From IMG/VR virus record IMGVR_UViG_3300037067_027643, positions 96,001-160,000 of that record: DNA of 64,000 nt; one strand, given 5' to 3'. This DNA comes from a virus. Taxonomy: Duplodnaviria > Caudoviricetes. Positions within the stretch are counted from its first letter, which is position 1. Every line of letters begins with the position of its first letter. Below, in pieces: positions 608-56,170 of this stretch. Below the pieces are notes generated by a model. The model worked only from the letters and a program-made list of their open reading frames with translations, ran no database searches and was not told the DNA's origin. The translations under genes were made by a program, and so were the position numbers.

Positions 608-639
608 CAAATATATAACTATTATTTTAATTTACCAAA
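608..639 (-). promoter_or_regulatory. Bacteroidota primary-sigma type promoter
   Basis: TTTG-N20-TATATTTG on minus strand, upstream of ORF starting at 578. Confidence 0.75.
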
Positions 640-2989: not shown

Positions 2990-3021
2990 CAAATTTACGA
3001 ATAATTTTTAATATATACAAA
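2990..3021 (-). promoter_or_regulatory. Bacteroidota primary-sigma type promoter
   Basis: TTTG-N20-TAAATTTG upstream of ORF starting at 2965. Confidence 0.75.
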
Positions 3022-4201: not shown

Positions 4202-4230
4202 AAAAAACTGGATAATAATATCCAGTTTTT
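4202..4230 (-). terminator. intrinsic terminator after major capsid gene
   Basis: AAAAACTGGATA/TATCCAGTTTTT inverted repeat with T/A tails. Confidence 0.8.
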
Positions 4231-4255: not shown

Positions 4256-5932
4256 TTATACGTAGTTTAAGTGGGTTACCACTAGCTTTCCGAAAAATTC
4301 GGGGCGAACTATTTTTTTTGCATATCTCGTAAGTACACCTTTTCTCGGCGTGAAGTTAGTACTATCATATACTAATGGTGTCATAATCAATGGAACATAA
4401 GGACAAAAAACGGCACCGCACTCTAAGAACTGACTACCTCTAAATCCCATCAATATGATATTTTCTTTCATATAAGGATTTTTGTAAACAGTAAAGCGAT
4501 TATTCAATAAACCTACTTTTTGTACTCCCATTGCAAATTGCATTTGGTTTCCATCAGTATCAGCTGCATAACCAGGAATTGATTCGATTATAGTAGCAAT
4601 ATCAGGAGAGCAAACCATAAAGTTAGCACCACCACGCATTGTTTTTTGGTGAATCTTGTTGCTGATTTTTTGCAATTTAGTACCTAAAGTTTGGAACCAA
4701 GTCTGTTGAGTATATTTAAGAGCGTATCCACTTTGTAAATCTTGACTTGTAAAGTTAGATTCACCATTAGTAGTTTGTCCTGTGTGTACAGTTCCTATTT
4801 TAGCTGACCAATAATCAGTTGTGATAGCGTTAAGAATCAACATATCTAAGATTTCTAAGTCAATTTCCATTGAAATATATTCACTCAACATACTTGTTAA
4901 TTCTGCTTCAGCATCAATTGAATGGTAAGCGTTTAAGTCCTGTGCAAATTCAGGAGTCCATACTGCTTTTAACTTTTTAGTTTTAGCAACAATTGGTTCA
5001 CTTCTCAATGATACGTTTATTTCTGGGATATCTAATGCGTTAGCACCTACTGATGTACCAGGAGCGTATTTATCGGGACCAGTTGTTCCACTTCCCCATG
5101 CAGGATCACCTTGAGCTTGGAAATCACCTCTATCGTAAGCTAATGGAGCTTTGCTATATTTTACCAATACTGTTGAAGCACTACCACTACACATAAAGGT
5201 TACATAACGAGTTGAAGCTGCTCCAGCACTTGTTACAGGCATTGTATTAGCTGGGTAATAAGCTTCGATACCACTACCACTAATATAGAAACTTCTTACA
5301 CCTTCTACATCGTGATTGGTTGTATTCATATCTACAGTTACTCTTTTCATTTCATCTGCTGCTACAGAAGCACTTAATGGAGCTGAATAGTTACAATCTG
5401 CCCAAGAAGCTGAAGTAATAGTTGTTGATAAACTTGCTGTATAGTCGTTAGTACTATATCCAAATCTACCTGCACCATATAAACCTTGTTCTGCATCAAA
5501 TGTTTGGTTAGTAATACCAAATACTGAATTGTTTTGTTCGTAAGTAGTATTAGTAGTATTGAAACCTGGTTGATCAGTTCCATATTTGAAATCTAAGTAG
5601 AATACAAGTCCACTAGGTAAGTTCATTGGTTGTACTGATACGAAGTCTTTAGCTGCTATTTCTGCAAAGATACGTCTTACTAATGGTAAAGCTACTCCTG
5701 ACCATTCTTCTGCACCTGTTGCTGTTCCTGTTTGTGATACTTCACTGATTAACTGTCTTGCTTGGTTTTCTAACAAAATAGCCATTCCATCTCTTTCGTA
5801 ATCACTTTTAAGACCGTCTAACAGTCCTGTTTTTTCCCATTTCTGGTTCAGAGCAATACTATCATTACGCATATTTTTATACGTAGATTTTATTTGTCCC
5901 TCTCCTATCAAATCACTAAATTTTTTATTCAT
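4256..5932 (-). CDS. major capsid protein (T4 gp23-like)
   Basis: LPLVRR, VSVQPMNLPSGLVF, KLKAVWTPEFAQDLNAYHSIDAEAEL, EIDLEIL, PYVPL, TRYA motifs. Confidence 0.95.
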   Translation of the reverse strand: MNKKFSDLIGEGQIKSTYKNMRNDSIALNQKWEKTGLLDGLKSDYERDGMAILLENQARQLISEVSQTGTATGAEEWSGVALPLVRRIFAEIAAKDFVSVQPMNLPSGLVFYLDFKYGTDQPGFNTTNTTYEQNNSVFGITNQTFDAEQGLYGAGRFGYSTNDYTASLSTTITSASWADCNYSAPLSASVAADEMKRVTVDMNTTNHDVEGVRSFYISGSGIEAYYPANTMPVTSAGAASTRYVTFMCSGSASTVLVKYSKAPLAYDRGDFQAQGDPAWGSGTTGPDKYAPGTSVGANALDIPEINVSLRSEPIVAKTKKLKAVWTPEFAQDLNAYHSIDAEAELTSMLSEYISMEIDLEILDMLILNAITTDYWSAKIGTVHTGQTTNGESNFTSQDLQSGYALKYTQQTWFQTLGTKLQKISNKIHQKTMRGGANFMVCSPDIATIIESIPGYAADTDGNQMQFAMGVQKVGLLNNRFTVYKNPYMKENIILMGFRGSQFLECGAVFCPYVPLIMTPLVYDSTNFTPRKGVLTRYAKKIVRPEFFGKLVVTHLNYV

Positions 5933-5951
5933 AATTTTTTAATCTCCTTCT

Positions 5952-7094
5952 TTATTTTTTATTGTTTGTTTGTTTATTATCATTACTTATGTTTGCTAAT
6001 TTTTGAAAGCGATCTCTTATTTCATTACTTTCTAAAATAACTTTTTTCTTGTTAACTTGGGTATTACCGACTATTCCTGATGCAATACTTTCGGTTAATC
6101 TTTTTGTTGTTCCGTTTACTTCTTTTTTAACTGATGTGGATTTTAAACTTTCTACTAATGTTACATATACTAATTTTACTTCTCTTAAACTGTTAGCTTT
6201 ATCCATATTATCAATTATCTTTAGTTTTTGAGATTCTGATAATTTTTCATATTGTCTAAATAATTTGTTAGCATATAAAAGTTTACTATTTAACAAGTTA
6301 ACTTCATTCATAGTAGTTTTTAATGACTTAATAACTTTGATAGCTTCTGATAAGTTTTTTTCAGCTCTTGCTGTTTTTTTCTTTTGTTCTTCTAATTCGT
6401 AATTGTTATATTCGTCATTAGGTTCATCTTCTTCTTTCATATCAGCTACTAATTCATCAATGTTGATGTCTTCATCATCGTCATCTGTTTTAGGTTCTTC
6501 TGCTGGAATTTCTTCTTCCTCTGTAGTTGTTTCTTTAGGTTCATCTTCTACTGGATCAGTATCAACTGGAATGTCATCTTCATCATTGTCTTCGTTTTCC
6601 ATTTTGATTTCGTCATCTTCTGTAGCTGGGTTTTCATCACCTTCAAGTTCTTTTAAGATTTCTTCCAATTCTTTTTCATCTTCTGATTTTTCATCTTCTT
6701 CTTGAACTGGTTCATCTTCTGTTTTAGGTTCGTCGTCTTCGATGTCAATATCTTTGTCATCTTCTTCTGATACTACTGGTTCTTCAGTATCAATTTTTTC
6801 TCCGTCTTCTTCTTTTACTGTTTGATCATCGTCGGCTGTAGATTTTACTTCGTCTTCTCCATCATCTTCCATTCCTTCTTCGTTAGTTGCTACTGGTTCG
6901 TCTTCGACTTCGATATTTTCGTCGTCTTCTCCACCTTCAACTTCTTGTTTAATTTTTTCACTAAACATTGCCTGTAATTTAGGATTGAATGCATCTGCTA
7001 TTGCTATTTTTGCATTTTTTAATGCTACTTCTTTAATCTGTTTAGCATCTGCAATTGCTTCGTCAAACAATGTTTTGTTTGTTGTTTTTGCCAT
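5952..7094 (-). CDS. prohead core scaffolding protein (gp22-like)
   Basis: Highly acidic, coiled-coil C-term NEVNLLNSKLLY, many L/I-x-E sites, directly upstream of capsid gene. Confidence 0.8.
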   Translation of the reverse strand: MAKTTNKTLFDEAIADAKQIKEVALKNAKIAIADAFNPKLQAMFSEKIKQEVEGGEDDENIEVEDEPVATNEEGMEDDGEDEVKSTADDDQTVKEEDGEKIDTEEPVVSEEDDKDIDIEDDEPKTEDEPVQEEDEKSEDEKELEEILKELEGDENPATEDDEIKMENEDNDEDDIPVDTDPVEDEPKETTTEEEEIPAEEPKTDDDDEDINIDELVADMKEEDEPNDEYNNYELEEQKKKTARAEKNLSEAIKVIKSLKTTMNEVNLLNSKLLYANKLFRQYEKLSESQKLKIIDNMDKANSLREVKLVYVTLVESLKSTSVKKEVNGTTKRLTESIASGIVGNTQVNKKKVILESNEIRDRFQKLANISNDNKQTNNKK

Positions 7095-7240
7095 AATTTA
7101 ATATCTCCTTAATAAGATTATTTGTTGTTTTTAATAGAAAATTTGTTTGTGTTTTCTATAATATAGATACTAGGATTAATCTATAATAGTTCGTTTTGAA
7201 TTTTTTGGGATGACACATATAAAAATGTCATATTTTAATA

Positions 7241-7250
7241 TATAAGTAGT
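7241..7250 (-). promoter_or_regulatory. putative late promoter (ACTACTTATA variant)
   Basis: Variant of recurrent motif upstream of scaffold-capsid operon. Confidence 0.6.
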
Positions 7251-7308
7251 ATTAAAAAAATAAAAAATTTGGAAAGATGGAAATATTTTTGTATAGAAAT
7301 GACAACTT

Positions 7309-8013
7309 TTAATGTAACTCTTTGATTATTACAGTAGTTACATCATCAAAAATATTTTTATAAATATTTTCTTGGAGAGTATATAATGTTGGTTTTTTTA
7401 AAATATTTCTTTGTTTTGGAAATTTTAATAATTCTGAATATGAACTTTGAATTAATTGTACTGATTTAATTACAGTTTTATCGACTTTATCAAATAATTC
7501 TTTTGTTTCTAATGTAGCTGTATTTATATTATTCTGAATAACTATAATGGAATGATTTCCTTTAACATAATTTAATATAAGTGCTATTAATGGTTTTAAT
7601 TTTACATCACTTGATATTTTCATTGTAGATATATCATCTGATAATGGAACATTATAACCATGACTTTTTATTCTATCAACTTCATGTTTAAATACTAAAC
7701 CATGCATTCCACCTACTTCTTGTAAATTATTTTGCATTATATAAACATGTATCATTTCATGTATAAGTAAGTTTATAAAATTATCATAGTCTCTTTCATA
7801 TAATTTATTCATTGCTAGATAATTAATTCTATATCCAGTATGTTTATTATAAACTCCATCTACATAACCACCATGCCTATTTGATGTAATCCATTTTAAA
7901 GGTATTTTTATTAATTTTCCAGAAAATAATTCATGATTTAACCTATCATACTCATGTTGTAGATTAAATTCTTTGTGGCTTATTTCTTGTAGAATTTTCT
8001 TTAATGATATCAT
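7309..8013 (-). CDS. SprT-like zinc metalloprotease
   Basis: YDRLNHELFSGKL, LIHEMIH (HExxH), downstream HGLVFK. Confidence 0.8.
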   Translation of the reverse strand: MISLKKILQEISHKEFNLQHEYDRLNHELFSGKLIKIPLKWITSNRHGGYVDGVYNKHTGYRINYLAMNKLYERDYDNFINLLIHEMIHVYIMQNNLQEVGGMHGLVFKHEVDRIKSHGYNVPLSDDISTMKISSDVKLKPLIALILNYVKGNHSIIVIQNNINTATLETKELFDKVDKTVIKSVQLIQSSYSELLKFPKQRNILKKPTLYTLQENIYKNIFDDVTTVIIKELH

Positions 8014-8018
8014 ATCAA

Positions 8019-8708
8019 TTAATAATATTTATCATAATTGTTTTTTGCTGCTCCATTAAAGAAAGTTAACGCTTGATCTAATCTACATGGACCTTTTATT
8101 GCTCCTAAATATTTCTTTTCTCCGCTTTTTGTAATAATATCAACTCTAGCTATATAAGCTATATTACCATTTGTAATTGATTTTGGTAATGGATTTAACG
8201 TGAATTCAATTTCTGGATATTTTTCTTTTAATTGTTCTAATGATAAATTGTTATTAGTTTCTTCTTGTTCTTTTAAAACTTTTCTAATTGTATTTTCTAT
8301 TAATGTATTTAATTCAGTTCTTTTCATTTTACTTTCTGTTTTTGGGTTTTCTAATTTTGGTATTCTTATTCTTAATATTGATTTACCATTAATAGTAGGT
8401 GACCCATGTTCATCTTTTCCAATTTCCTTTACTACTACTAGTTTATTAAGAAATTTTCCAGTCTTCACGGTATCTCCAGGTTCTATATCTATTGTAATTA
8501 CTTCTCTTAAAATAGCAGATAATGATAATTTTTTATTTTCATTTTTATTAACATACTTAGCAGCTAATTGATAAAACATACTTTCCAGTTCGTGTGTATT
8601 TATTCCAAGCTGATCAGAAAAATCATGAACATCACTATCTGGAATATTTCCATCTGGATACTGTTTTAAAAACTCAATAACCTTTTGTTTTATTTCTGCT
8701 TTGCTCAT
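8019..8708 (-). CDS. multi-module putative internal head protein
   Basis: Internal LSLSAILRE and MKRTELNTLIENTIRKVLKE motifs separate three modules. Confidence 0.55.
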   Translation of the reverse strand: MSKAEIKQKVIEFLKQYPDGNIPDSDVHDFSDQLGINTHELESMFYQLAAKYVNKNENKKLSLSAILREVITIDIEPGDTVKTGKFLNKLVVVKEIGKDEHGSPTINGKSILRIRIPKLENPKTESKMKRTELNTLIENTIRKVLKEQEETNNNLSLEQLKEKYPEIEFTLNPLPKSITNGNIAYIARVDIITKSGEKKYLGAIKGPCRLDQALTFFNGAAKNNYDKYY

Positions 8709-8723
8709 TGTTAGTATCCTCTA

Positions 8724-9053
8724 TTACTTGTATTGAGATTTACTAGCTTCCTTTTCGTTCTTTACATCAACTTGATTATAAAATATAGCTTTATTTTTTG
8801 ATTCCCTCTTCTTAACCGATGGTTTAATAAACATTTGTCTATCTCTTAATTCTTGTATTCTACCCGATTCTCTTACTACTTTCTTAAATATTTTTAAAGC
8901 CATTTCAATATTACCATCAATTACCTTTACTGCACAAGCGGCTGTTCCATCTACTTTTGTTTTTTTAGGTTGACGTTTTGGTTCATTGTTATTATTAAAA
9001 TGTTGAGTTTGATTACTATCTCCTCCTTGTTTTTTCTTAGTTTGTTTTTTCAT
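8724..9053 (-). CDS. rpsU: phage-encoded 30S ribosomal protein bS21 with ~40-aa N-terminal extension
   Basis: VKVIDGNIEMALKIFKK...G.IQELRDRQMFIKPSVKKR...KAIF matches the bS21 pattern; located in head module as reported for large Bacteroidota phages. Confidence 0.9.
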   Translation of the reverse strand: MKKQTKKKQGGDSNQTQHFNNNNEPKRQPKKTKVDGTAACAVKVIDGNIEMALKIFKKVVRESGRIQELRDRQMFIKPSVKKRESKNKAIFYNQVDVKNEKEASKSQYK

Positions 9054-9076
9054 TAAATGGATTTTTAAATTTCTTA

Positions 9077-9331
9077 TTAAAAATTATTATTCATATAATA
9101 ACTAACAGCTGCCCATAAATCAACACTAATTACTCCATCTTTTATTTTTTTAGCATTATACTTGTAATGTCTATTATTATTTATCAATTCAATTTCTTTA
9201 TCTGTGTTTGATTCATTATATAATGTAATTATTATTTTATCTCCCTTTATTTCAAAGTGTTTTGCAGCATTTTCATTTAATACTTGTTTAACTTTATTTT
9301 CTATTAATTTTTCTAATTCTAACTTTTTCAT
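9077..9331 (-). CDS. putative internal head protein (shared leader)
   Basis: MKKLELEKLIENKVKQVLNE. Confidence 0.6.
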   Translation of the reverse strand: MKKLELEKLIENKVKQVLNENAAKHFEIKGDKIIITLYNESNTDKEIELINNNRHYKYNAKKIKDGVISVDLWAAVSYYMNNNF

Positions 9332-9358
9332 CTTATATTGTTCTCCTTTATTTTTTAT

Positions 9359-10009
9359 CTACAAATAGTCATCTTTTACCGGGCTAATTATCTTCCTTAA
9401 TTTACCATCAAAATTATTAAACAATTGATTTACATTGCTTATTATCTGTTCGTATTGTTCTCGATCTGTTTCAAATTCATCACTATTTCTTAAACAATCT
9501 ATTAAAGAATTGATGGCACTTTTTAATAATGGGAATGTTTTATCATCGTATTCATTGATTACATATACAGGAGTTGACGATTCTTTTAAAATAGTTCTTA
9601 CTGTATTTTCTATTAGTTTTTCCAGTTCTTTTTGTTTCATACTTAACTTTCCTTCATGTATTTTATTGTAATCCAATGTATAAGAACCATGTGTTGATTT
9701 ACTTGTTCCTGTAGAAAATAGTTGTCTATTAATAACTAAATTATACTTTTTTAATATCGTTGTCAATTCTTTTTGTATAGTATTTTCTGAAATAGTAAAA
9801 CTTTTAGCTCTCTTAAAAGCCGATTCCATTATTATTGTTAATTCGAACTGACCATCGTTATTTAAATCATATTGAAATGCTAATATATCAGGATAATAAT
9901 CTAAACGAGACGTTTTTTTAGCCCATTCTATTATCTTATCAATTTTTATTTTAGCCTCTTTGGAAGCCTTTTTAATATCGTTAATTTGATCTGGTGTAAT
10001 ACTAGCCAT
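9359..10009 (-). CDS. putative internal head protein (internal leader motif)
   Basis: Internal MKQKELEKLIENTVRTILKE starting at 9640. Confidence 0.55.
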   Translation of the reverse strand: MASITPDQINDIKKASKEAKIKIDKIIEWAKKTSRLDYYPDILAFQYDLNNDGQFELTIIMESAFKRAKSFTISENTIQKELTTILKKYNLVINRQLFSTGTSKSTHGSYTLDYNKIHEGKLSMKQKELEKLIENTVRTILKESSTPVYVINEYDDKTFPLLKSAINSLIDCLRNSDEFETDREQYEQIISNVNQLFNNFDGKLRKIISPVKDDYL

Positions 10010-10026
10010 TATTTATATTTTCCTAT

Positions 10027-11115
10027 TTATTTCTTGATAGATTCGATTCTTTTCAATTGTTGAGCGTGTTCTAACTGTTTTGCAAATTTATTTAACATTT
10101 GAATTTTCTTTTCCATTTCTGTAGATTTATGATTGATAAAGTTATTAACTCCATGTATAAATCCTTTTACCCAATCTATTAATTTTGATACTACATTAGC
10201 TTCGTTCTTTTTCTTTAATTCACCTTTTAATGATGGAGCTACTTTTGTAATTTTATAAGAAGTGTCTATCATCTTTTTAACAGATTCTATCATGTCTTTT
10301 GTTAATTCACTTTTATCTAACTGTTCCAAAAATGTATCCATTTTAAAATCTTTTCTTTCACTTTCTTTAGATAATGTAATTAACATTCTATTAGTTTCAA
10401 TTACTCTGGTATAAAGTTTATCTTCATCATTAAATATTTCTGATATATACTGCTTAATTTGTGGATCTATACTTTCTTTTAATATTTTTAGTTTATTTAA
10501 TTCAGTTACTATTTCTTCATATTGAGATACTATACGATTTACATAACCGGATTTTTGTTTATGAAGTTCGGCTATTACTTTACCCCCACCATTTTTAGCT
10601 TCTTTGACCAAATATTCGATATCAGTACTTCTGTTTTCATTTAATTTATTTTCTATTAAAGCTTCTACATGTATTTTATCAAATAATTTTTCATGTACAA
10701 CATCTGCTACAGCAGTATCACCTAATCCAGCATTTGGATATTTATCATATATTTTTTTATAAACTATACCAAACTTATCAATTAATTTATCTAACAAATT
10801 GGTAACAGTTTCACCTTCTTCTTGTGATTTACATAATAAAGCATATTTATTAACATTTGTTAAATACCATTCATTTTCTTCATTAATTATACATCTAACA
10901 ATATTCTCAATTATTTTTTCTATCGCTTCTTTTTTCATTTTCTTAGGTAATCCTTTCGTTGGTGTTTCGGCATAATCTTTAACATCTTTTTCTTTCATAT
11001 TATTAGCAACATCCTTTACATTCTTACTAACATCAGATGATTTAATATCACCTTTCTGAACTGCATGTACTACATTAAAGAATTTTTGTTGAGCTTTTGA
11101 AACTGCTGGACACAT
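10027..11115 (-). CDS. DUF3008-like N-terminal module fused to leader-tagged modules
   Basis: PAVSKAQQ...QKG...AETPTKGLP resembles DUF3008; then MKKEAIEKIIENIVRCIINE. Confidence 0.55.
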   Translation of the reverse strand: MCPAVSKAQQKFFNVVHAVQKGDIKSSDVSKNVKDVANNMKEKDVKDYAETPTKGLPKKMKKEAIEKIIENIVRCIINEENEWYLTNVNKYALLCKSQEEGETVTNLLDKLIDKFGIVYKKIYDKYPNAGLGDTAVADVVHEKLFDKIHVEALIENKLNENRSTDIEYLVKEAKNGGGKVIAELHKQKSGYVNRIVSQYEEIVTELNKLKILKESIDPQIKQYISEIFNDEDKLYTRVIETNRMLITLSKESERKDFKMDTFLEQLDKSELTKDMIESVKKMIDTSYKITKVAPSLKGELKKKNEANVVSKLIDWVKGFIHGVNNFINHKSTEMEKKIQMLNKFAKQLEHAQQLKRIESIKK

Positions 11116-11130
11116 ATTTGTTATTTCCTT

Positions 11131-11514
11131 TTACTTTATTGTATTAAAAATATAATCTGCTAAAACATGTCGCATTATTTCAAAGTGTAATACAGAACTA
11201 TCATGTGATGTTCTTGATTGAACATGTATTTTAAGCTTCTTAGTTAAATTATTTTCTATTCCTTGTACAAATACATCTAATGTATCTTTATCTTCCATTT
11301 CCTCTATTAATTCTAAGTCTCTATGTGTTTTTGGTGTAAGTGTAATTATAACTGTATCTGATTTTAAAATTAATCCAAATTGAAATGTAATCATACTATT
11401 ATTTATAGTCTTATATCTAAGATCTTCACTTTCATTTAATCTAATAGTTCTTTTAGACGATGAATTAATCATCATACAATCATTTTCAAGTAAGAATTCT
11501 TTTAGAGATGGCAT
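11131..11514 (-). CDS. putative internal head protein (short leader)
   Basis: MPSLKEFLLE resembles T4 capsid-targeting sequence MKTYQEFIAE. Confidence 0.55.
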   Translation of the reverse strand: MPSLKEFLLENDCMMINSSSKRTIRLNESEDLRYKTINNSMITFQFGLILKSDTVIITLTPKTHRDLELIEEMEDKDTLDVFVQGIENNLTKKLKIHVQSRTSHDSSVLHFEIMRHVLADYIFNTIK

Positions 11515-11541
11515 TTTATTTCCTTTTATTTTACTTTATTT

Positions 11542-12294
11542 TTATTCTAAACTATTAACAAATGATATAAAACTACTATCTCTTGTTAATTTTGAATATG
11601 CTTTTAACCATTTCATAAAAATTTGAAAATTAATTAATGGAAAATAGACATCTAAAGATTGTATTTTTTCATCACTTATTTTTATTTTACCAGTGTCAAC
11701 TCTCTCGTCAATATCTTTAATAATTTTATCTAATTTCAAATATTTATCTTCGCCAATTCTATTAAGTAGTCCAGTACATAATGATTCTTTTTCAATTAAT
11801 GTTTCATATATATAACTATGTCTAATTAAACTCTTAATTCTTAAAATATTTGTTCTTTTATCATCTTCTTTTAAAATCTTTCTTATTTTATTTTCTATCA
11901 AAGTTTCTAATGATTTAATCTTTTTACTTTCATTTACATTAGGAATAAAATAAATTATCTTTTTATTATTAAGTAATACAATATGCTTCTTATCATAGTT
12001 ATAATAAACAGAACAACAATAAGGTTTTCCTTTATTTATAGTTTGTGATATATAATCATACAATTCTACTCCACTTCTAAACTGTAATGTTGCTTTATCA
12101 TCATTATCAATAATATCAAATACTTGATACTGAACAGATTTATATAAACCCATCAAATCAGATAAAAACTTTTTCTCTTGCCATTCTGGAGTTCTTACAT
12201 TATCTTTATTTAATGTATCAATACTAGCTAAATTTTGATAATTCTTTGATTTACTTAAATCATCGATAGTTGGTAAAACCATATTTATTGCCAT
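11542..12294 (-). CDS. putative internal head protein (internal leader motif)
   Basis: SLETLIENKIRKILKE internal. Confidence 0.55.
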   Translation of the reverse strand: MAINMVLPTIDDLSKSKNYQNLASIDTLNKDNVRTPEWQEKKFLSDLMGLYKSVQYQVFDIIDNDDKATLQFRSGVELYDYISQTINKGKPYCCSVYYNYDKKHIVLLNNKKIIYFIPNVNESKKIKSLETLIENKIRKILKEDDKRTNILRIKSLIRHSYIYETLIEKESLCTGLLNRIGEDKYLKLDKIIKDIDERVDTGKIKISDEKIQSLDVYFPLINFQIFMKWLKAYSKLTRDSSFISFVNSLE

Positions 12295-12305
12295 GTTAAT
12301 TTCCT

Positions 12306-12899
12306 TTATTTTGTTTTAAAAGCTTTCTTTTTATTATTAACTGATTCTTTTTGAACATCTTTGATATCATAGTATCTATTTAAGATAGAACCAATGTTTT
12401 CAAAGTTTCCTTCCAATCTTTTTTGTAATATAGTAACATCCTTAGCTGTTTTCTCAAAGTTTTTTAAAGCGTCGTTTAACGACTTGAAGTCACGTTGAAT
12501 TGAGGAAATATCACTCCAATCATCTGTTTCTTCTAACGCGATTTGTTCAGCGAGTTTGCCTATTTGTAGCATCTCTTTACAGATTTCTTTCAAATTTCCT
12601 TCTCTATAAATAGATTCACTATACTTATTGAAATCGGCTACTGCTTCTCTAAAAGCATTTTTCATCTCTTTAGTAACCTCTTTACTTCCTTCTTCCTCTT
12701 GACCAAATAACAGTTTTTTCTTTTCCGTTGGTTTAGAGTCATTATCAACTGGTTTTCCTTCGTCATCCATTTCATACAATACCTTTCCATCCCAGCCACG
12801 CGCGTAAGATGGACCATCATTACCTGTTTTAATTCCATCTAAAAGACTGATATTTACTTCATTAAGAAGTGTTTTTAATTTTGTATCATTTTTTGCCAT
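12306..12899 (-). CDS. conserved head-module protein (possible prohead core component)
   Basis: KLKTLLNE leader, helical C-term ENIGSILNRYYDI; position in head module. Confidence 0.5.
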   Translation of the reverse strand: MAKNDTKLKTLLNEVNISLLDGIKTGNDGPSYARGWDGKVLYEMDDEGKPVDNDSKPTEKKKLLFGQEEEGSKEVTKEMKNAFREAVADFNKYSESIYREGNLKEICKEMLQIGKLAEQIALEETDDWSDISSIQRDFKSLNDALKNFEKTAKDVTILQKRLEGNFENIGSILNRYYDIKDVQKESVNNKKKAFKTK

Positions 12900-12915
12900 G
12901 ATTGTATTCCTTTTA

Positions 12916-13275
12916 TTATTTATATAATTTTAATATCTTATCTTTAAATTCATTCATTAATTGAATTATATCTATTAAATGATCACTATGTTTATCCATC
13001 ATAATCTGACCATATTCATTTTCTACCCACATAGCCATACTCCTTATAATATATTGATAGTGATAATGTCTGATTGCAGTTAATAAATCTCTATAATGTT
13101 TAAAATATTGTTCAAATGTTACTTTATTATTAGTAAACAAATCAAATGTTCTTCTATCAATTTGAAATAAATCTCTACATACTTCTACATAAGTCATCTC
13201 AGGAGTGATTCTAAATTCCTTTAAAATCTTCCTTACTTTATTTTCAATTAATATTTCTAATTCTTTTCGATTCAT
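12916..13275 (-). CDS. putative internal head protein (shared leader)
   Basis: MNRKELEILIENKVRKILKE. Confidence 0.6.
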   Translation of the reverse strand: MNRKELEILIENKVRKILKEFRITPEMTYVEVCRDLFQIDRRTFDLFTNNKVTFEQYFKHYRDLLTAIRHYHYQYIIRSMAMWVENEYGQIMMDKHSDHLIDIIQLMNEFKDKILKLYK

Positions 13276-13598
13276 TATGAATTCAACAATTTGCTGTTTA
13301 CTTTATTATTAATTTCATTTAATTTTTTAAACAAATTTTCAAAACCAAACTCTTTAGCCAATTCTATACTTTCATTAATATTACTTTGTATAGTCTTCAT
13401 AGCTTGTTTCTTTTTTGTAGATTCTGATAACTGTTTATTACTTGTTTTTAAATCGTCCTTTGTACCAATACCTAATCGTTTTAAAGTATCCATACTAATT
13501 GATGGTTGCTGTGAAGCTGCTGTTACTATTCTAACTCCACCAAACATTTCAAGTAATAGTTCGTCTTGTTTTTCTTTTAATTTATCTTTGTCGATCAT
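13275..13598 (-). CDS. hypothetical head-module protein
   Basis: AAGGAG SD, LLLE/LSE/INE sites. Confidence 0.55.
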   Translation of the reverse strand: MIDKDKLKEKQDELLLEMFGGVRIVTAASQQPSISMDTLKRLGIGTKDDLKTSNKQLSESTKKKQAMKTIQSNINESIELAKEFGFENLFKKLNEINNKVNSKLLNS

Positions 13599-13618
13599 TA
13601 TATTATTTCTCCTTGTAT

Positions 13619-13975
13619 TTATTTATTAGCTATAATTTTTTTTAATTTAAACGCATTTGCTTTAGTTTCAATATTATAAGTATTTTGTGCTGTTTCAAAC
13701 TCTTTATAAACTTTTATCCATCTATTATAATCTTCTTTTAATCTATTTAATAAATTTATCATATCCGAAGTTTTAAATAATTCTGGGTTTGATTTTAAAA
13801 TCGAAGTTAATTCTGTATGTAATTCTTTAACCCAAGGTACCCATTCAGAATCTTTACCAACATTTGATATAAGCATTACATTTAATATCTTAGTAATTTC
13901 TTTAGGATCCAAATTTTCTTTTAATATTTCTCTTACTTTATTTTCTATTAAAATTTCTAATTCTTTTTGTTTCAT
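13619..13975 (-). CDS. putative internal head protein (shared leader)
   Basis: MKQKELEILIENKVREILKE. Confidence 0.6.
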   Translation of the reverse strand: MKQKELEILIENKVREILKENLDPKEITKILNVMLISNVGKDSEWVPWVKELHTELTSILKSNPELFKTSDMINLLNRLKEDYNRWIKVYKEFETAQNTYNIETKANAFKLKKIIANK

Positions 13976-13992
13976 ATTTAATATTCCTTTAC

Positions 13993-14670
13993 TTAATTTA
14001 AATCTATCAAAATTTCGCTTATTAGTGTATTTACTCGATCATATTTATATGGAACTAGCAAACCCGTACTAGTCTTGACAAATCCTTCGTTAATCTGTTC
14101 TTTTACTGGATACATAAAGGCATTAATCGTGCTCGGATTAGAAACGAAGTCCCAACTAAGGATTTCAAAGTCATCTTGTACTTCAACTTGGTCATCATCT
14201 TCTTCATGTAATGGTTTCACACTTCCTAATCCTCTACTTGATATACCTATTGTCAATCCACGTTTTAAAACGGCTTCCACAATCCTACCGCATGGAGTAT
14301 CAAGTAATTCAATACGTCCATAAAGGTCATCTCCTGACCACCACAGTTTCTGTATCCAATGGGAGGCAGTCTGCATAGACACTACGCTAGTCGCTGGGTG
14401 ATCGAGCTCGCCGAAAGATCTTCGTTCTGTAACAAAGGTTTTAACATAATTGTTAGCTTCTCTTTCTAATATTCGCTTAGGATATTTTCTTCCATTTTGA
14501 TTAATAGCGTTTGCTCTTTGTAAAATTCCTTCTACAATCATTCCATGAACAAATTTATCATCTTTATAAACAGCTTCTGATATAATATTCTTACGAAATT
14601 TACCGCTACCAAAACTATCTACTATTAGTTCCTTTTTATTTTTTTGCTGTTGTATCTTATTATTATCCAT
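13993..14670 (-). CDS. prohead core protease (T4 gp21-like)
   Basis: NQNGRKYP, GELDHP, SH, GISSRGLGS, DFVSNPS catalytic motifs. Confidence 0.95.
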   Translation of the reverse strand: MDNNKIQQQKNKKELIVDSFGSGKFRKNIISEAVYKDDKFVHGMIVEGILQRANAINQNGRKYPKRILEREANNYVKTFVTERRSFGELDHPATSVVSMQTASHWIQKLWWSGDDLYGRIELLDTPCGRIVEAVLKRGLTIGISSRGLGSVKPLHEEDDDQVEVQDDFEILSWDFVSNPSTINAFMYPVKEQINEGFVKTSTGLLVPYKYDRVNTLISEILIDLN

Positions 14671-14695
14671 ATCTCAATATCCTTTTTCTTAATAT

Positions 14696-15031
14696 TTAAG
14701 AACCTAAATGTTTCATCTTTTGATTTAGTCTTGTTATTCTTTCTTGTATTCGATTAATTTTTTGCTTGGTCTGCTCCCAATAGTGATCTGAACTAACACT
14801 AGCTTCTTGTTTTAATCGTGAAGCATGTGTAGCAAGTCTTTCTATTTGCAAAAGTTTACTATTAATCTCAGAAATAGCTCTATTGACTTTCTTTCTTGGA
14901 GTATCATCATTTTCTGTTTTAAAGACTCCATAGCTTACTTCGTTTAAATCAACTTTATCTTGTTCTTGATGTTCAATTATGACTTTATTTACTATTTGTT
15001 CTATTAATTGTTCAAGTTCTGTTCTGTTCAT
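14696..15031 (-). CDS. putative internal head/core protein (shared leader)
   Basis: MNRTELEQLIEQIVNKVIIE. Confidence 0.6.
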   Translation of the reverse strand: MNRTELEQLIEQIVNKVIIEHQEQDKVDLNEVSYGVFKTENDDTPRKKVNRAISEINSKLLQIERLATHASRLKQEASVSSDHYWEQTKQKINRIQERITRLNQKMKHLGS

Positions 15032-15036
15032 AATTT

Positions 15037-15330
15037 CTATTTCCCTTGATTGTTTTTTAGGTATTCAACTATTGACATAAATATATTATGAAAATCTTTC
15101 ATATAATTTACTAATTTAGTATCATGTGTTTTGTCAAATTCGCGTTTTAGTAATGTATAACAGTTGATATAATGTTTATAGCATTGTTTAATTGTATCTG
15201 CTAAATGCACATCTTGTGATAAGGTAATAACACTTTCTAACAATGAATTTAATGATTCTTCATTAAGGTTTTCTGATACTATCGCTCTTACTCGATTTTC
15301 TATTAGTTTTTCTAATTCTTTTTGTTTCAT
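15037..15330 (-). CDS. putative internal head protein (shared leader)
   Basis: MKQKELEKLIENRVRAIVSE. Confidence 0.6.
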   Translation of the reverse strand: MKQKELEKLIENRVRAIVSENLNEESLNSLLESVITLSQDVHLADTIKQCYKHYINCYTLLKREFDKTHDTKLVNYMKDFHNIFMSIVEYLKNNQGK

Positions 15331-15338
15331 AATATTAT

Positions 15339-15992
15339 CTACTCCATACCAAACTTCTTAATCATATCTTTAAACTCTGCACTTTGTAAAAATTTAATTT
15401 CCTTATTTGGTAATTCTTTCCAAGTAACTCCTTTATTTTTTTCCAAATATTTCTTAGCTAATTTTAATTCAGCATCATTAGCGAATTTAATTGATTCTTT
15501 TTCTTTGTTTATTTTAGGTTGATAAAATTTAATTTTCTTCCCTGTTTGTGGATTAATAGTATTATCTTCTTTCTTTTTTGGTGTTTCTTTACTTTTAGCA
15601 TCTTTGGCTTTAGTACTATTTGGATGTTTTTCTATATAATCTTTCTGACCTTCTGCACCCAAATCATTCCACCAATCTTCATTCATTAATACTGTATTAG
15701 CCATTTCTTTTAACGTTCTTGTAACAACAGGAACCTCTCTTCCCTTATTATCTGCTTTTTCTTTCTTACCAACTCTAGTCATCCCACTCATATTAGATAC
15801 TTTATCATTAGTAGTAGATGAGAATGCCCCCGGAGTTTGATATCCGGGAACTCCCGCAGTAGTTGACATTTCATCTATATCGTCTTCTTCATTATCTTTT
15901 TTAATATCTTCTTTTTTAACTGTTCTCTTATTTTCAGATAATGCTTTGATAACTAAGTCTTCTATAATTTTATCTAATTCACTTCTTTTCAT
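15339..15992 (-). CDS. multi-module putative internal head protein (shared leader)
   Basis: MKRSELDKIIEDLVIKALSE; modules EMSTTAGVPGYQTP, EDWWNDL..QKDYIEKHPNS, NPQTGKKIK. Confidence 0.6.
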   Translation of the reverse strand: MKRSELDKIIEDLVIKALSENKRTVKKEDIKKDNEEDDIDEMSTTAGVPGYQTPGAFSSTTNDKVSNMSGMTRVGKKEKADNKGREVPVVTRTLKEMANTVLMNEDWWNDLGAEGQKDYIEKHPNSTKAKDAKSKETPKKKEDNTINPQTGKKIKFYQPKINKEKESIKFANDAELKLAKKYLEKNKGVTWKELPNKEIKFLQSAEFKDMIKKFGME

Positions 15993-16009
15993 TATATATT
16001 GTTCTCCAA

Positions 16010-16558
16010 TTAAAATTTATTATCATTTCTTAGTTGCTGTATTGTTTTTAATATATCAGATACATAATCTCTTTTTAATTTTAAATCATCATAACTAGGA
16101 AATGTACGACTTACATTTAAATCTTTATCATCTCGTTTCATTTTATCAATTTTATTAATAACCTTAGTCATAATAGCATTATCCTTTTGCATGCTTCTTA
16201 TTATTTTATCGCGTTTATCTCTTGACTGTTTTTTAATATGTTCAACTCCAACATTTATACCATCCTTATATGTCTTTCCAGTTGTATTATTTTCTATAGT
16301 ATCAATTAATTTATTTGTCTCACTACTTCCAATTTTATCAATTTTTTTATTTACTTTAGGATGTGTATCTTTAGCAACCATGTTCTTTGCTGTTTTGTAT
16401 ACAGGGGAATTTTTATCATAACTTAATGCCGTTGATAATTTTATATCTCTTCCTGTTTTTGGGTTTTTTATTGTTTTATCATAATCAGTTTCTGATAACA
16501 CTTTTTTTGTAATATCTTCTACTAACTTATTTAATTCACTTCTTTTAATTGTTGTCAT
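16010..16558 (-). CDS. putative internal head protein (shared leader)
   Basis: MTTIKRSELNKLVEDITKKVLSE; IKNPKTGRDIK module. Confidence 0.6.
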   Translation of the reverse strand: MTTIKRSELNKLVEDITKKVLSETDYDKTIKNPKTGRDIKLSTALSYDKNSPVYKTAKNMVAKDTHPKVNKKIDKIGSSETNKLIDTIENNTTGKTYKDGINVGVEHIKKQSRDKRDKIIRSMQKDNAIMTKVINKIDKMKRDDKDLNVSRTFPSYDDLKLKRDYVSDILKTIQQLRNDNKF

Positions 16559-16577
16559 GTTATAATATTTCTCCTTA

Positions 16578-17447
16578 TTATTTACTAATATTCTTTAATT
16601 CATCTATCAACTGATAAAATTTTAATAAGGCTACCACAGTTGAATCTTTAATCTGAGTCTTACTTTCTTTAATTAAATTGAGCTGGTTAAGTGTTTCTTT
16701 TAATTTTATCTTAATTACTTTATCATCTATCGTCTTAGCTACCTCTACCACCTGTTTTTTAATCTTTGGAATCTCTTTACAAATAAATTCTTTTAACTTT
16801 ACATTATCACTAATATTATTGATATATTCTCTTAATAGATTCTTCTGTTCATTATTTAAATTTTGATATTTCTTATTAAATATTTCCAACATTTTCTTAT
16901 ATGAAAACAACTGCATATCCCTATCTAATGAATCAAATTCTTTTGTTGTATTTTCTTTTATTGTTTCGACTGAGCTTTTATTCTTTTTATTATTTGTAAT
17001 ATGTTCTATCAAAGTAAATCTACTATCTACTATTTCTGTCGCTGGAACATTACCGATACAACTTTCAAATAACTGATATATAGAAGCTAGTTCTTTGTAA
17101 TTATTTATTTTAGCTTTTACAAATTCATTTATCTTATAACATTCATTAATTTTTTTAACTAAATTATATTTCTGTTTTCTTAGTTCATTGTTATTTAATG
17201 ATTTTCTTTGAGATATAACAGTTTCTATTAAATGAACAGCTTTATCTTGATTTCCTTCGTATTTAGTTTGAAGCAAAGTATTGTATAAATAATACTCTTT
17301 ACTAAGTTCAGAATTCTTTTTAAAAAATTCAGATAATATAGTTGTTGCTTTACATTGTACACCACTAAGTGTATCCGAAGCAATTTGTCTTACAAGTAAC
17401 TCAAATAAAATACCTGTGTTTTTAAATTTACTGTGCTTATTCTTCAT
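16578..17447 (-). CDS. conserved head morphogenesis protein (function uncertain)
   Basis: KHSKFKNTGILFELLVRQI N-term; lies between portal and protease with own late promoter. Confidence 0.55.
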   Translation of the reverse strand: MKNKHSKFKNTGILFELLVRQIASDTLSGVQCKATTILSEFFKKNSELSKEYYLYNTLLQTKYEGNQDKAVHLIETVISQRKSLNNNELRKQKYNLVKKINECYKINEFVKAKINNYKELASIYQLFESCIGNVPATEIVDSRFTLIEHITNNKKNKSSVETIKENTTKEFDSLDRDMQLFSYKKMLEIFNKKYQNLNNEQKNLLREYINNISDNVKLKEFICKEIPKIKKQVVEVAKTIDDKVIKIKLKETLNQLNLIKESKTQIKDSTVVALLKFYQLIDELKNISK

Positions 17448-17488: not shown

Positions 17489-17499
17489 TATAAATAGTA
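17489..17499 (-). promoter_or_regulatory. putative late promoter (ACTATTTATA)
   Basis: Recurrent motif. Confidence 0.65.
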
Positions 17500-23342: not shown

Positions 23343-25415
23343 TTAGTACAACCAACTCAAATCATCATCTCCTTTTGTACTATTACCGTTCCAATTTTTT
23401 CCACTTCCATAACCTTTATTATTAATATTCCAATTTTTCATAAGTGGTGAACCATAATGTCCTACATTTCCTCCTGTTGATACTACCGAGCCATAATAAT
23501 TATTTGAAGTATTAAACAATTCTAATGTCTTTCTATTTATTTCTACACCTTCTGACATTAATTTAACGGCTGTATCCCTTATCCACAAACCGATCCCCAA
23601 ACTTAAAACTAAATCGTCATTATACCCATGAGCAGCCTGTGCTTTATTATTTAACCAAATAAATACTTTTAATTCTTCTATAGTTCTCTTTGATTGTATA
23701 ACTACTAATTTTTCTCTTAATAGTAATTCTATCTTACTTACTAATAATGGTCTAGTTTTAGTTGATGTAGTAAATCCAGGCACTTTATCTTCATTACTTT
23801 TTAAATCATATCCTTTATTTAAATAACTTTGTACATCGGAAACTTGAGAATCTTTATAAGAATAAAATAAATTTGGATATTGTCTATCTACTGCTACTTG
23901 AATAGCTGCCCATCCAACATTTGCATTTTCTATTACTAATAATGCGTTATTATATTCAGTTGCTATATTTACTAATAAATGTCCATAATCTTTTGTTGGG
24001 ATCTGGGATCTAAATTCTGCTACTTGTACAAGGTTAACTACATCTATTACATGAAATGCTGAATAATCTGTTCCATCTCCTCTAGCAACGTCTGCTGCAA
24101 CTAAATATTGTTTATTATAATCTGGATAATCCCATATCCATAATGCTTGATCTATGCCTCTTTTTTCTATTGGTTCTTTTACATACGTTTGCTCATAAAA
24201 TTCTAATATTGAAAATTCTACTAATGTATTACCTGACGATTCGAAAGATGTATCGCAATTATGGCAGACTACATGTTCAGTAATATAAGAGTGGTCATCC
24301 TCTACTTCTAAATTATATACTTCAATTAATTTATCAACAATTAAATTTCCCTTATATAATACAGTATATTCATGATGTGTTCGTTCATTTTCTTTAACAT
24401 AAATAAAACTACAAACTTTATCACCATCATTAATTTCTTCTATTGATTTCCATTCGTTATCAAATGTATAAAATGGATGATTTGAAGTTACTTTTCTTTT
24501 TTTATGATTCTTTGATGTATTAAACTCATAATATTTATTTGATGTTTGTTCTACTTTTTTAATTACTTTTTTATAATTTCCTAAATGTGTTAATACTATA
24601 TCTCCTTCTGTGATTTCTTTTATTGGTGTTAATCCTTCTATTGTATGTATTAATGTATCTCCAGAAAAACATTCTTGAGCCGCTAGTTTTGGACCTAATA
24701 ATTCGTCTTGTTCTTGTCTCCAGGCTAAATCTCTTTCAGGATGTACATCCCATTTTAATTTTATTGGATTAAACTTTGTTTCATGTGCTTCTGCTTTTAC
24801 CCATTGTCTGTGAAATATATTACCAATACCATTTGGCGTCGAGAGCATTATACAATCTCCACCAGTACCAAGAGTTTGCTGTGCAGATGCCCAGATTTCA
24901 TTAATATTATCAATGAAAGCGCACTCGTCAAGTATTAAAAGAGCACAAGAATCAGATCTTCCAGCTGTCGGGCTGCTTGTTTCTGCTTGTACTTGTGAAC
25001 CGTTTTTCCATTTTATTGATAATTTATTATCTTCTGTAGTATGTGCATTTTTTTTAATCCAAACAGGTAAATCACCATACATTATTCTAACTTTAGTTAC
25101 AAGAGCCTTTGCAACTTTTTCTTTTGTAGCAATTACTAATACATTTTTATCATCATGAAAAATACATAACCAAAGTGCATAAGCAGCAACTAATGTAGAT
25201 ATTCCAAGTTGTCTAGATTTAAGAATAATATTGTATCTATGATTCATTAAATCAATTAATGTACGTTCTTGAAATGGATATAATTCAAAAAATATTCTAC
25301 CTCTTGTTTGATGCTGAATTCTACAATACTTTTTAATAAAATAAACTATATCAACTGCACATTTAGCATATTCCTGTTTTATTATTTCTCTTAGATTTTG
25401 TTCATCTGTTGGCAT
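23343..25415 (-). CDS. terminase large subunit (T4 gp17-like) with one intein; probable start MPTDEQ at 25415
   Basis: KSRQLGIST Walker A, LLILDE Walker B, STPNG, ADVARGDGTDYS, NDDLV. Confidence 0.95.
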   Translation of the reverse strand: MPTDEQNLREIIKQEYAKCAVDIVYFIKKYCRIQHQTRGRIFFELYPFQERTLIDLMNHRYNIILKSRQLGISTLVAAYALWLCIFHDDKNVLVIATKEKVAKALVTKVRIMYGDLPVWIKKNAHTTEDNKLSIKWKNGSQVQAETSSPTAGRSDSCALLILDECAFIDNINEIWASAQQTLGTGGDCIMLSTPNGIGNIFHRQWVKAEAHETKFNPIKLKWDVHPERDLAWRQEQDELLGPKLAAQECFSGDTLIHTIEGLTPIKEITEGDIVLTHLGNYKKVIKKVEQTSNKYYEFNTSKNHKKRKVTSNHPFYTFDNEWKSIEEINDGDKVCSFIYVKENERTHHEYTVLYKGNLIVDKLIEVYNLEVEDDHSYITEHVVCHNCDTSFESSGNTLVEFSILEFYEQTYVKEPIEKRGIDQALWIWDYPDYNKQYLVAADVARGDGTDYSAFHVIDVVNLVQVAEFRSQIPTKDYGHLLVNIATEYNNALLVIENANVGWAAIQVAVDRQYPNLFYSYKDSQVSDVQSYLNKGYDLKSNEDKVPGFTTSTKTRPLLVSKIELLLREKLVVIQSKRTIEELKVFIWLNNKAQAAHGYNDDLVLSLGIGLWIRDTAVKLMSEGVEINRKTLELFNTSNNYYGSVVSTGGNVGHYGSPLMKNWNINNKGYGSGKNWNGNSTKGDDDLSWLY
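24258..24671 (-). mobile_element. mini-intein (138 aa) in terminase
   Basis: QE/CFSGDT ... TSNHPF ... VYNLEVEDDHSY..VVCHN/C. Confidence 0.9.
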
Positions 25416-51847: not shown

Positions 51848-51879
51848 TTTGGTAGTCTGATTTATTTGTTGTATATTTG
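51848..51879 (+). promoter_or_regulatory. Bacteroidota primary-sigma type early promoter
   Basis: TTTG-N20-TATATTTG. Confidence 0.8.
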
Positions 51880-51908: not shown

Positions 51909-52391
51909 ATGAAAACAGTAAAATTAACAAAACGTACACAAGAATTAATTTCTAATGGAATGAGTGCTTTAGGATTTAATAATCCAAACGATGTATATTA
52001 TTATATTGAAGAAGAATTATATTGTAAAGAAGCTAAATTAATTCAAGAATTTTTACAATGGTTATTTAAAATTAATAGACCTTACGGTAGAGTAAATGCA
52101 CAACAAAGATGGAATGAATTCATTTCTGGAGAAAAAGCTCCTGAACATTATTTTTTATTAAAATATGAATTTGATTATGATGTAAAATGTACTAATGGAA
52201 TTTTTCATAATACATCTAAACAAGTAGAAAGAATTACTAATCCAAACGATATTAATGAAGTTGCAAATATTATGAAAAATTTCAATTTTGTTAACAATGA
52301 ATATAGAATTAAAACTGTTAATGAAAATGGAGAATTAATTAAAGAATATACTCATAATGAAATTAAAACTACGGTAGATAAATTAAAATAA
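51909..52391 (+). CDS. early hypothetical protein
   Basis: Follows host-type promoter, A-rich SD-less start. Confidence 0.65.
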   Translation: MKTVKLTKRTQELISNGMSALGFNNPNDVYYYIEEELYCKEAKLIQEFLQWLFKINRPYGRVNAQQRWNEFISGEKAPEHYFLLKYEFDYDVKCTNGIFHNTSKQVERITNPNDINEVANIMKNFNFVNNEYRIKTVNENGELIKEYTHNEIKTTVDKLK

Positions 52392-52392
52392 A

Positions 52393-52424
52393 TTTGTTTA
52401 TCTCAAAAATTATAATTATCTTTG
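52393..52424 (+). promoter_or_regulatory. Bacteroidota primary-sigma type early promoter
   Basis: TTTG-N20-TATCTTTG. Confidence 0.8.
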
Positions 52425-52459: not shown

Positions 52460-52771
52460 ATGGAAACAACAACTATTAAAAAGAAAATAACTTTAGCTAC
52501 ATTAAAAAGTTTTGTTAAGAAAAATAAAGAAAATCTATTTATTAATGTGACATCAGAATTCGATGGAATGGTAGATGGAATTTCTTATTGTAATGATGGT
52601 TTTCAAAAAGCTAAATTAACAGAAGATAATATCAAAAATACTTTAGGAATTCAAGGAGCTTGGCTCGTTGGAGGTAGTAGAAATTATTTTGATAGTTATG
52701 AAGACGATAATTATATTGGCTACAATGTATATAATTGCTGTGGAGCGTTTTATTTGGTAATTAAAAAATAA
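52460..52771 (+). CDS. early hypothetical protein
   Basis: KITLATLKSF, FDGMVDG, NTLGIQGAWLVGGSR, VYNCCG. Confidence 0.65.
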   Translation: METTTIKKKITLATLKSFVKKNKENLFINVTSEFDGMVDGISYCNDGFQKAKLTEDNIKNTLGIQGAWLVGGSRNYFDSYEDDNYIGYNVYNCCGAFYLVIKK

Positions 52772-56166: not shown

Positions 56167-56170
56167 AGAT

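Follow-up and report, generated by a model that had tools for sequence, protein, structure and literature searches.

Why would a bacteriophage keep a gene for the small-subunit ribosomal protein bS21 among its head genes, and why should those head genes be led by Shine-Dalgarno (SD) sequences if the ribosomes of its host are of a kind that ignores them? These questions are raised by the head-morphogenesis module of a 64,000-nucleotide stretch of viral DNA (hereafter the window), which comprises bases 96001-160000 of the 285,744-bp record IMGVR_UViG_3300037067_027643, rated 100% complete. The record is that of a 286-kb T4-like jumbo phage with a Bacteroidota host, the latter judged mainly from promoter type as described below; its guanine-plus-cytosine (GC) content is ~25% and uniform along the genome, and 22 tRNA genes lie directly upstream of the window. 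Ribosomes of Flavobacterium johnsoniae sequester the anti-SD tail of their 16S rRNA by means of bS21, bS18 and bS6 (PMC7797042), and ordinary SDs give the wild-type ribosomes no gain (PMC9976891). Ribosomes that contain bS21 Y54A, a truncated bS21 (deltaC) or no bS21 translate SD messages 1.7- to 5-fold better and SD-less messages worse (PMC9976891). We show here that phage bS21 and SD-led head genes occur together across the relatives of this phage, and we consider what the protein may do to the ribosomes of the infected cell.

The bS21 gene, first recognized in a sequence-only reading of the window, is genuine. Its product matches PF01165 at 45.1 bits (cut-off 27; E 8e-12) over profile positions 2-50 of 55 and has the conserved KPS/T motif of the family in the form IKPSVKKR, and a six-frame search identifies it as the single copy in the 285,744-bp genome (46.5 bits). 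The best solved match is chain 9i5v_9 (E 1e-9), followed by the F. johnsoniae chain 7jil_z (E 3e-6), which we take as support for the host type. AlphaFold2 predicts a three-helix core (helices 49-63, 65-73 and 78-108) with predicted local distance difference test (pLDDT) values of 82-95. Foldseek matches of the model to the PDB are weak, the top three being chains of mitochondrial small-subunit ribosome entries (probability 0.99, 0.99 and 0.92; E 0.1-0.3); the title of the top entry names no protein, and mitochondrial S21 is listed separately as chain AQ of another entry. The basic N-terminal extension, put earlier at ~40 residues, measures 38-41 residues depending on which of two alignments is used, and is predicted to be disordered (pLDDT 52-62). 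A word-index search returned only one bS21 homologue, 93% identical, in which the extension is kept with an in-frame two-residue indel. Searches for phage-encoded bS18 or bS6 were negative. A genome scan with bS21 alone as query gave no match, and tblastn of bS21 against phage records gave one match only; because it missed the annotated RpsU of Microcystis phage Mel-JY01, such a tblastn search is insensitive.

The bS21 gene itself has no SD, as had been claimed: the 25 nt upstream of its start give a pairing energy (dG) of +0.4 with a 10-nt anti-SD and -2.3 with the 15-nt tail. The exceptionally strong SD of host rpsU (below -13 kcal/mol; PMC9976891), a feature of host-type autoregulation, is therefore not a property of the phage gene. 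An internal AAGGAGGAG at bS21 codons 9-11 (9020-9028, minus strand) was considered as a regulatory site and judged incidental. No start codon follows it, sites as strong occur ~70 times in the genome, and an internal SD-like site is present in only 2 of 84 relatives' bS21 genes; in L177, as in L174 where it falls just short of the cut-off, an internal ATG follows the site and is possibly the real start.

The distribution of SDs was examined for 486 genes called with a codon-usage open reading frame caller, positions -20 to -1 being scored against CACCUCCUUU and a gene being counted as SD+ at dG <= -5 kcal/mol. The earlier claim that SDs are concentrated on head genes is borne out, with 16 of the 20 genes in the head module SD+ as compared to 37 of 466 elsewhere (odds ratio 46, p 1.5e-13). 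The motifs in the module (AAGGAG, AAAGGA or GGAG) lie 6-12 nt from the ATG, and those quoted previously for the capsid, scaffold, protease and sheath genes read as stated. Pairing with the full 15-nt tail amounts to -6 to -10 kcal/mol, which is of ordinary strength. Three genes of the module are SD-less, namely bS21, the SprT-like gene (7309-8013) and 12916-13275, the ATG of which overlaps the upstream stop. Outside the module, clear SDs precede the genes for the tail tube (located elsewhere in the genome, outside the window), the tail sheath and the single-stranded DNA-binding protein (SSB), and weaker ones those for a DnaB-type helicase and a QueE-like enzyme.

The genome as a whole is SD-poor: SD+ genes (53/486) are no more frequent than SD+ coding windows (45/441) or hits obtained with mock or shuffled anti-SDs (10-45). 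This lack of an excess at starts, together with an A-rich context in which a chance AAGGA arises easily, would fit the idea that the AGGAG-like motifs are not translation signals and serve instead as RNA-processing sites (T4 RegB cuts at GGAG) or as parts of promoters, in which case the link to bS21 would be a shared lineage trait. We regard this idea as highly improbable. The AGGA/GGAG/GAGG core shows a sharp positional peak at -16 to -11 before start codons, and the motifs occupy nearly every short (10-30-nt) intergenic spacer of a single operon, far from its promoter motif, which differs from them in sequence. Moreover, the position of the SD is kept before the scaffold and capsid genes of ~100 diverged relatives.

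We also observed a motif of ~20 residues, K-ELE-LIEN-VR-ILKE, at the N-terminus or internally in 15 otherwise unrelated proteins encoded at 312-35111 of the window. The genes concerned lie mostly in the head module (for example 9077-9331, 13619-13975 and 15037-15330), and 10 of the 15 are SD+. Having an L-I-E like that of T4 prohead-protease cleavage sites, the motif looks like a capsid-targeting tag.

Three conserved motif families suggest an early, a middle and a late programme of transcription. The host-type family assigned to early genes (TTTGGTAGTGTGAAA...TAnnTTTG; TTTG-N17-21-TAnnTTTG) has 15 matches in the window as against 4.5 expected, and 67 in the genome as against ~24 in Markov simulations. 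A -33 TTTG / -7 TAnnTTTG consensus is typical of Bacteroidetes promoters, and the enrichment and high conservation of this family are the main evidence for a Bacteroidota host, as the sequence-only reading had supposed. That reading had also held that early genes behind such promoters lack SDs. This is so for 35 of the 36 genes that the family precedes; promoters were found before three of the starts it had named (2965, 51909 and 52460), and the starts at 52782 and 55288 have no strict host-type match before them. The middle-like family, a near-identical 20-mer (AATAATTTTGTATATTAAAAAT), precedes ~19 genes, including those for SSB and the helicase and window gene 3023-4117. The late-like family (TTTTTACTATTTATATAAAT), an 8-mer enriched ~30-fold in intergenic DNA, precedes ~30 genes, including those for portal, sheath and tube and the first gene of the head module; several structural genes of Flavobacterium phage immuto have a similar motif, TATTTATAA, within the preceding 25 nt. 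On the strength of these signals the head module, bS21 included, is probably one late transcription unit that runs from the motif at 17490-17497 to the hairpin at 4203-4230.

When genes are classed by the nearest upstream promoter motif, 37 of 176 in late or middle units are SD+ as compared to 14 of 277 in early units (p 4e-7), so that the expected difference between temporal classes is present. It does not extend to genes directly behind a late-type promoter, only 6 of 32 of which are SD+, and SDs are thus a mark of high-copy non-early genes and not of late genes as a class. The description of the SD bias as late-gene-specific was accordingly too broad. The portal gene (dG +2.1) and the terminase gene at its real ATG (25414) lack SDs, as had already been pointed out, as do most genes with late promoters, and SSB, the product of a replication gene, has a strong one.

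Three viral-contig scans with capsid proteins as queries yielded 237 loci. Of these, 189 could be scored for bS21, either because the gene was detected or because the sequence extended 5 kb or more upstream of the capsid gene. Among the 108 loci with bS21 (median SD+ gene fraction 0.52, median GC 0.34), 104 have an SD+ capsid gene, as compared to only one of the 81 loci without it (median SD+ gene fraction 0.07, median GC 0.32). All 108 loci have bS21 in the same placement, in the head region and on the same strand. In four bS21-less genomes that are at least 95% complete, bS21 is absent genome-wide. Judged by their capsid proteins, Mel-JY01, immuto and Rhodothermus phage RM378 are the closest relatives in culture; the complete genome of immuto (MW353176) has no bS21, and its head-gene leaders are A-rich and SD-less. 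On a tree built from 160 distinct capsid proteins, at least five changes of bS21 state are required, three of them forced by well-supported branches. All ten bS21+ clades are SD-rich, and none of the four low-GC clades without bS21 rises above the background level of SDs. The cleanest contrast is found in the window's own capsid clade, a well-supported group of four rows nested among bS21+ clades, in which the three other members are bS21-less and SD-less phages. Of these clade mates, L172 shares the promoter family above control and L002 has a recurring variant of it. The strict host-promoter pattern exceeds control in 2 of the 15 records tried (G014/L080 and G015/L172), immuto with its known host not being among them, and for most relatives the pattern is uninformative as a host marker.

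Which feature of the phage protein might matter? The sequence-only reading had pointed to KAIF in place of host KAAY, and alignment to 7jil_z confirms this: phage KAIFYN is aligned to F. johnsoniae KAAYIQ, with Phe91 of the phage at position 54. Phenylalanine keeps the aromatic ring and loses the hydroxyl, a conservative change, and F and Y are counted as similar at this position, where Tyr54 of F. johnsoniae bS21 stacks on A1534 (PMC7797042). Loss of Tyr54 therefore fails as an explanation here, because Phe91 retains the ring. Position 55 is Tyr in the phage as compared to Ile55, which makes a van der Waals contact, in F. johnsoniae, and the C-terminal domain, which is weakly basic in the Bacteroidia-type protein (PMC7797042), has an isoelectric point of 9.8 against an aromatic-class median of 10.6, a comparison with phage sequences only. 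We classed 87 distinct phage bS21 sequences by position 54, the 87th having a gap in that column. The capsid gene is SD+ in 48 of 50 cases with Tyr, Phe or His, 15 of 16 with Arg, and 19 of 20 with an aliphatic or other residue; the corresponding figures for the bS21 gene itself are 0/45, 2/13 and 6/18. Residue 54 is not decisive for the trait because capsid genes are SD-led in all three classes, and a causal loss of Tyr54 was rejected, since this phage has Phe and SD-led capsid genes accompany Y, F, H, R, V, L and A. None of the bS21 genes of the aromatic class has an SD, whereas the adjoining scaffold and capsid genes are SD-led. The genome L080/G014 (IMGVR_UViG_3300033182_000581, 169 kb), which has an Arg-type bS21, is one in which a Bacteroidota-type promoter family (TTTGGATAATTCAAAAAT..TGTATATTTG) occurs ~18 times, so that bS21 with a non-aromatic residue 54 is likewise encoded by likely phages of Bacteroidota. 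The whole aromatic class has a basic N-terminal extension of 14 residues or more (range 14-22), and most members of the other classes have one too; a PG motif is conserved in the 12 sequences aligned. As the remaining phage-specific feature, the extension is the best candidate for the determinant.

Ordinary SDs on high-copy genes, SD-less early genes and the loss of SDs where bS21 is missing would make sense only if the ribosomes change during infection. We tentatively propose that the viral bS21 makes SD-blind ribosomes SD-reading, by way of its basic N-terminal extension and not through loss of Tyr54, and so opens a private channel for high-copy virion and SSB messages. Early genes, with host-type promoters and A-rich SD-less leaders, would be read by unmodified ribosomes. 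The ordinary SDs (A/AAGGAG) carried by genes for presumed high-copy proteins (capsid, scaffold, protease, about a dozen tagged internal head proteins, tail tube, sheath and SSB) would pay off only once the ribosomes of the infected cell turn SD-competent. Phage bS21 would be the most likely agent of this change: transcribed in the late head operon and translated by native ribosomes from its SD-less leader, it would take the place of host bS21 on the 30S platform, so that the anti-SD would stay accessible and virion mRNAs would gain a fast channel. Its synthesis would be self-limiting, as converted ribosomes would lose efficiency on SD-less leaders, in a mirror image of the host rpsU loop. That the protein is built into ribosomes, takes over from host bS21 and acts on the anti-SD is our inference. 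Whether bS21 and SD use are functionally coupled at all seems to us evenly balanced, and that the protein acts by freeing the anti-SD is possible rather than probable.

Several observations weigh against this proposal. Only 3-5 independent gains or losses of bS21 are seen on the capsid tree, and with so few contrasts a sign test cannot reach significance. The sole SD+ locus without bS21 (L022) has 53% GC, and at least one bS21+ relative (L017) is SD-poor. Mel-JY01 (PP395634.1, L251), in which RpsU is annotated at 9143-9370 in the head module and is of the Arg type, has SDs on nearly all genes including bS21, and its host according to the record is a cyanobacterium. The Mel-JY01 pattern looks like plain adaptation to an SD-using host, and host phylum consequently confounds part of the raw association between bS21 and SDs; some bS21+ relatives probably infect SD-using hosts. 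Finally, the strong SD of the SSB gene behind a middle-like promoter implies either that bS21 acts before the late phase or that SDs work without it.

The second of these options leads to an alternative in which SDs function independently of phage bS21, the host pool being already SD-competent (through bS21-less subunits, or because the host belongs to a Bacteroidota lineage in which highly expressed genes use SDs) and the phage protein having another job, such as ribosome repletion after host shut-off or competition at initiation. The non-late promoter of SSB would then need no special account; SD use that follows the host in cultured Mel-JY01 and the aromatic residue retained at position 54 fit equally well, and strong SDs are tabulated for the ribosomal protein genes of several Bacteroidota classes (PMC7797042). 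We nevertheless consider this alternative rather unlikely. The nearly complete lack of SDs behind host-type promoters would be odd if native ribosomes profited from them, the nearest kin with the same promoter type (clear in L172) have neither bS21 nor SDs, and the association between the two, at 104/108 against 1/81, is tight.

A further difficulty for the proposed conversion of ribosomes lies in the protein itself, since the ring of Phe91 can stack on A1534 and the C-terminal helix looks host-like; Chen et al. 2022 infer from their own phages that phage bS21 blocks the anti-SD like the host's (PMC9723584). Were this so, the protein might brake or time the SD-led head genes, or blunt the rpsU autoregulatory response while a bS21-free minority of subunits reads SD messages. 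The Phe-Tyr pair at positions 54-55 agrees with such a role, and an SD-less bS21 gene would escape the host-type feedback loop. Blocking would, however, cut the translation of the highest-copy proteins encoded by the same operon, and it leaves the disappearance of SDs wherever bS21 is absent unexplained; we judge it improbable. The coordinates of the features discussed here are collected in the table.

Table. Features of the window and the evidence for them (window coordinates; dG in kcal/mol)
Feature	Position	Strand	Evidence or remarks
bS21 gene, 109 aa	8724..9053	-	PF01165; PDB bS21 chains 9i5v_9 and 7jil_z; AlphaFold2 core; no SD
Basic N-terminal extension of bS21, codons 1-41	8931..9053	-	Precedes conserved core; absent from F. 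johnsoniae bS21
Phe91 codon TTT	8781..8783	-	Aligned to Tyr54 of F. johnsoniae bS21 (HMMER to 7jil_z and 9i5v_9; MAFFT)
Head-morphogenesis module, 20 genes	4256..17447	-	16 with SD, a 17th with a weak AGGA
Major capsid protein, gp23-like	4256..5932	-	PF07068, E 4e-75
Capsid-gene SD AAGGAG, spacer 11 nt	5944..5949	-	dG -9.3/-9.7
Putative scaffold (prohead core) protein	5952..7094	-	Acidic; directly upstream of capsid gene; position and composition
Scaffold-gene SD AAGGAG, spacer 10 nt	7105..7110	-	Anti-SD pairing
SprT-like zinc protease gene (HEMIH), SD-less	7309..8013	-	PF10263, E 2e-7; two genes downstream of bS21
SD AAAGGAG of tagged 84-aa head protein gene 9077-9331	9344..9349	-	Gene immediately upstream of bS21
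Prohead protease, T4 gp21-like, S77	13993..14670	-	PF03420, E 9e-34; SD AAAGGA at 14680-14685
SD AAGGAG of gene 16010-16558	16571..16576	-	Anti-SD pairing
Late-type promoter motif, TTTTTACTATTTATATAAAT family	17490..17497	-	42 nt before first head-module gene
Terminator-like hairpin, 12 bp, after capsid gene	4203..4230	-	
Portal protein with intein, 1211 aa	17515..21150	-	PF07230 and PF14890 (Intein_splicing, two stretches); no SD
Large terminase	23343..25414	-	PHROG terminase families; no SD
Tail sheath gene, continues past window end	62638..64000	+	phrog_23, E 6e-58; SD AGGAG, spacer 9 nt
Bacteroidota-type early promoter before SD-less gene 2384-2965	2990..3021	-	Consensus match
Bacteroidota-type early promoter (TTTGGTAGTCTG...TATATTTG) before SD-less gene 51909-52391	51848..51879	+	Consensus match
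Bacteroidota-type early promoter before SD-less gene 52460-52771	52393..52424	+	Consensus match
Promoter-like motif copy, from one of the three families	608..639	-	

Nearly all proteins of the head module are without a match in PHROGs. The putative scaffold protein is one of these, and homologues of it are present in 232 of the related loci. That bS21 might be exchanged, and that a phage protease might act against host bS21, was raised as speculation by McNutt et al. 2023 (PMC9976891). The SprT-like protease was considered as a general factor for such an exchange and set aside, there being no homologue of it in the 237 related loci. A transposase-like gene (PHROG 12300/506; 35795-37492, plus strand) lies at the strand switch beside the structural block, and a plus-strand block at 55288-58046 carries genes for nicotinamide adenine dinucleotide salvage (ribose-phosphate pyrophosphokinase and nicotinamide phosphoribosyltransferase), the starts of which are SD-less. 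DNA of the window is present in groundwater and landfill metagenome runs, of which the groundwater one may have given rise to the assembly, and the sequencing runs listed as carrying it include no RNA dataset.

If the proposed conversion of ribosomes is correct, the phage would clearly exemplify viral reprogramming of ribosome specificity and not of ribosome number, and the location of bS21 inside head operons would be explained. The pattern of bS21 and SDs makes the function of the phage protein directly testable, given that reporters, mutant ribosomes and cryo-EM pipelines exist for F. johnsoniae; Mel-JY01 may also serve as a laboratory system for phage bS21, although its stated host is a cyanobacterium. 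For annotation, the presence of an SD predicts high-copy virion genes in these phages, and from whether bS21 is present or not one can predict the start-site model that a gene caller should use. The location of bS21 in the head region, its late expression and its N-terminal extensions were already known; for a link between phage bS21 and SD-led genes, our literature searches on bS21, phage and Shine-Dalgarno found no earlier paper.

The closest known counterparts are the freshwater Bacteroidetes jumbo myophages of Chen et al. 2022 (ISME Commun, PMC9723584), in which bS21 lies in the head region and is expressed late, and for which substitution into host ribosomes was proposed. As in those phages, bS21 is encoded on the same strand within the terminase-portal-protease-capsid region, the genome is of similar size (theirs are ~290-330 kb) with many tRNAs and a predicted Bacteroidetes host, and position 54 is aromatic, with one Phe case among theirs. 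The present phage differs in its GC content (25% as compared to 31-34%), in an N-terminal extension about twice as long, and in having two extra genes between bS21 and the scaffold gene. Chen et al. did not analyse the SDs of phage genes, whereas SD-led head genes, and their absence in bS21-less kin, are the central observation here. The rpS21 of huge phages described by Al-Shayeb et al. 2020 (Nature, PMC7162821) likewise has a basic N-terminal extension, and those authors propose competitive binding or preferential initiation on phage mRNAs; they tie a lack of SDs to phage rpS1 and not to bS21, which is not connected with SD-led genes in their account. Immuto and Mel-JY01, with capsid proteins of 52-55% identity, share the T4-like order of the head module. 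They differ from the window phage in that immuto lacks both bS21 and head-gene SDs, and Mel-JY01 combines an Arg-type bS21 with SDs nearly everywhere. Among cellular systems, the bS21 paralogues of Francisella tularensis resemble the present case in that swapping variants alters which mRNAs are translated well (PMC9578407, PMC12262407); they are cellular and not viral, and the abstracts of these papers mention no anti-SD sequestration. The autoregulation of rpsU in F. johnsoniae (PMC7797042, PMC9976891) has the same players, namely bS21, a sequestered anti-SD and SD messages that are favoured only once the anti-SD is accessible. There the exceptional SD is on rpsU itself, whereas the phage bS21 gene has none and the phage's ordinary SDs are placed on virion genes, and if the phage protein does free the anti-SD, both feedback signs of the host loop would be inverted.

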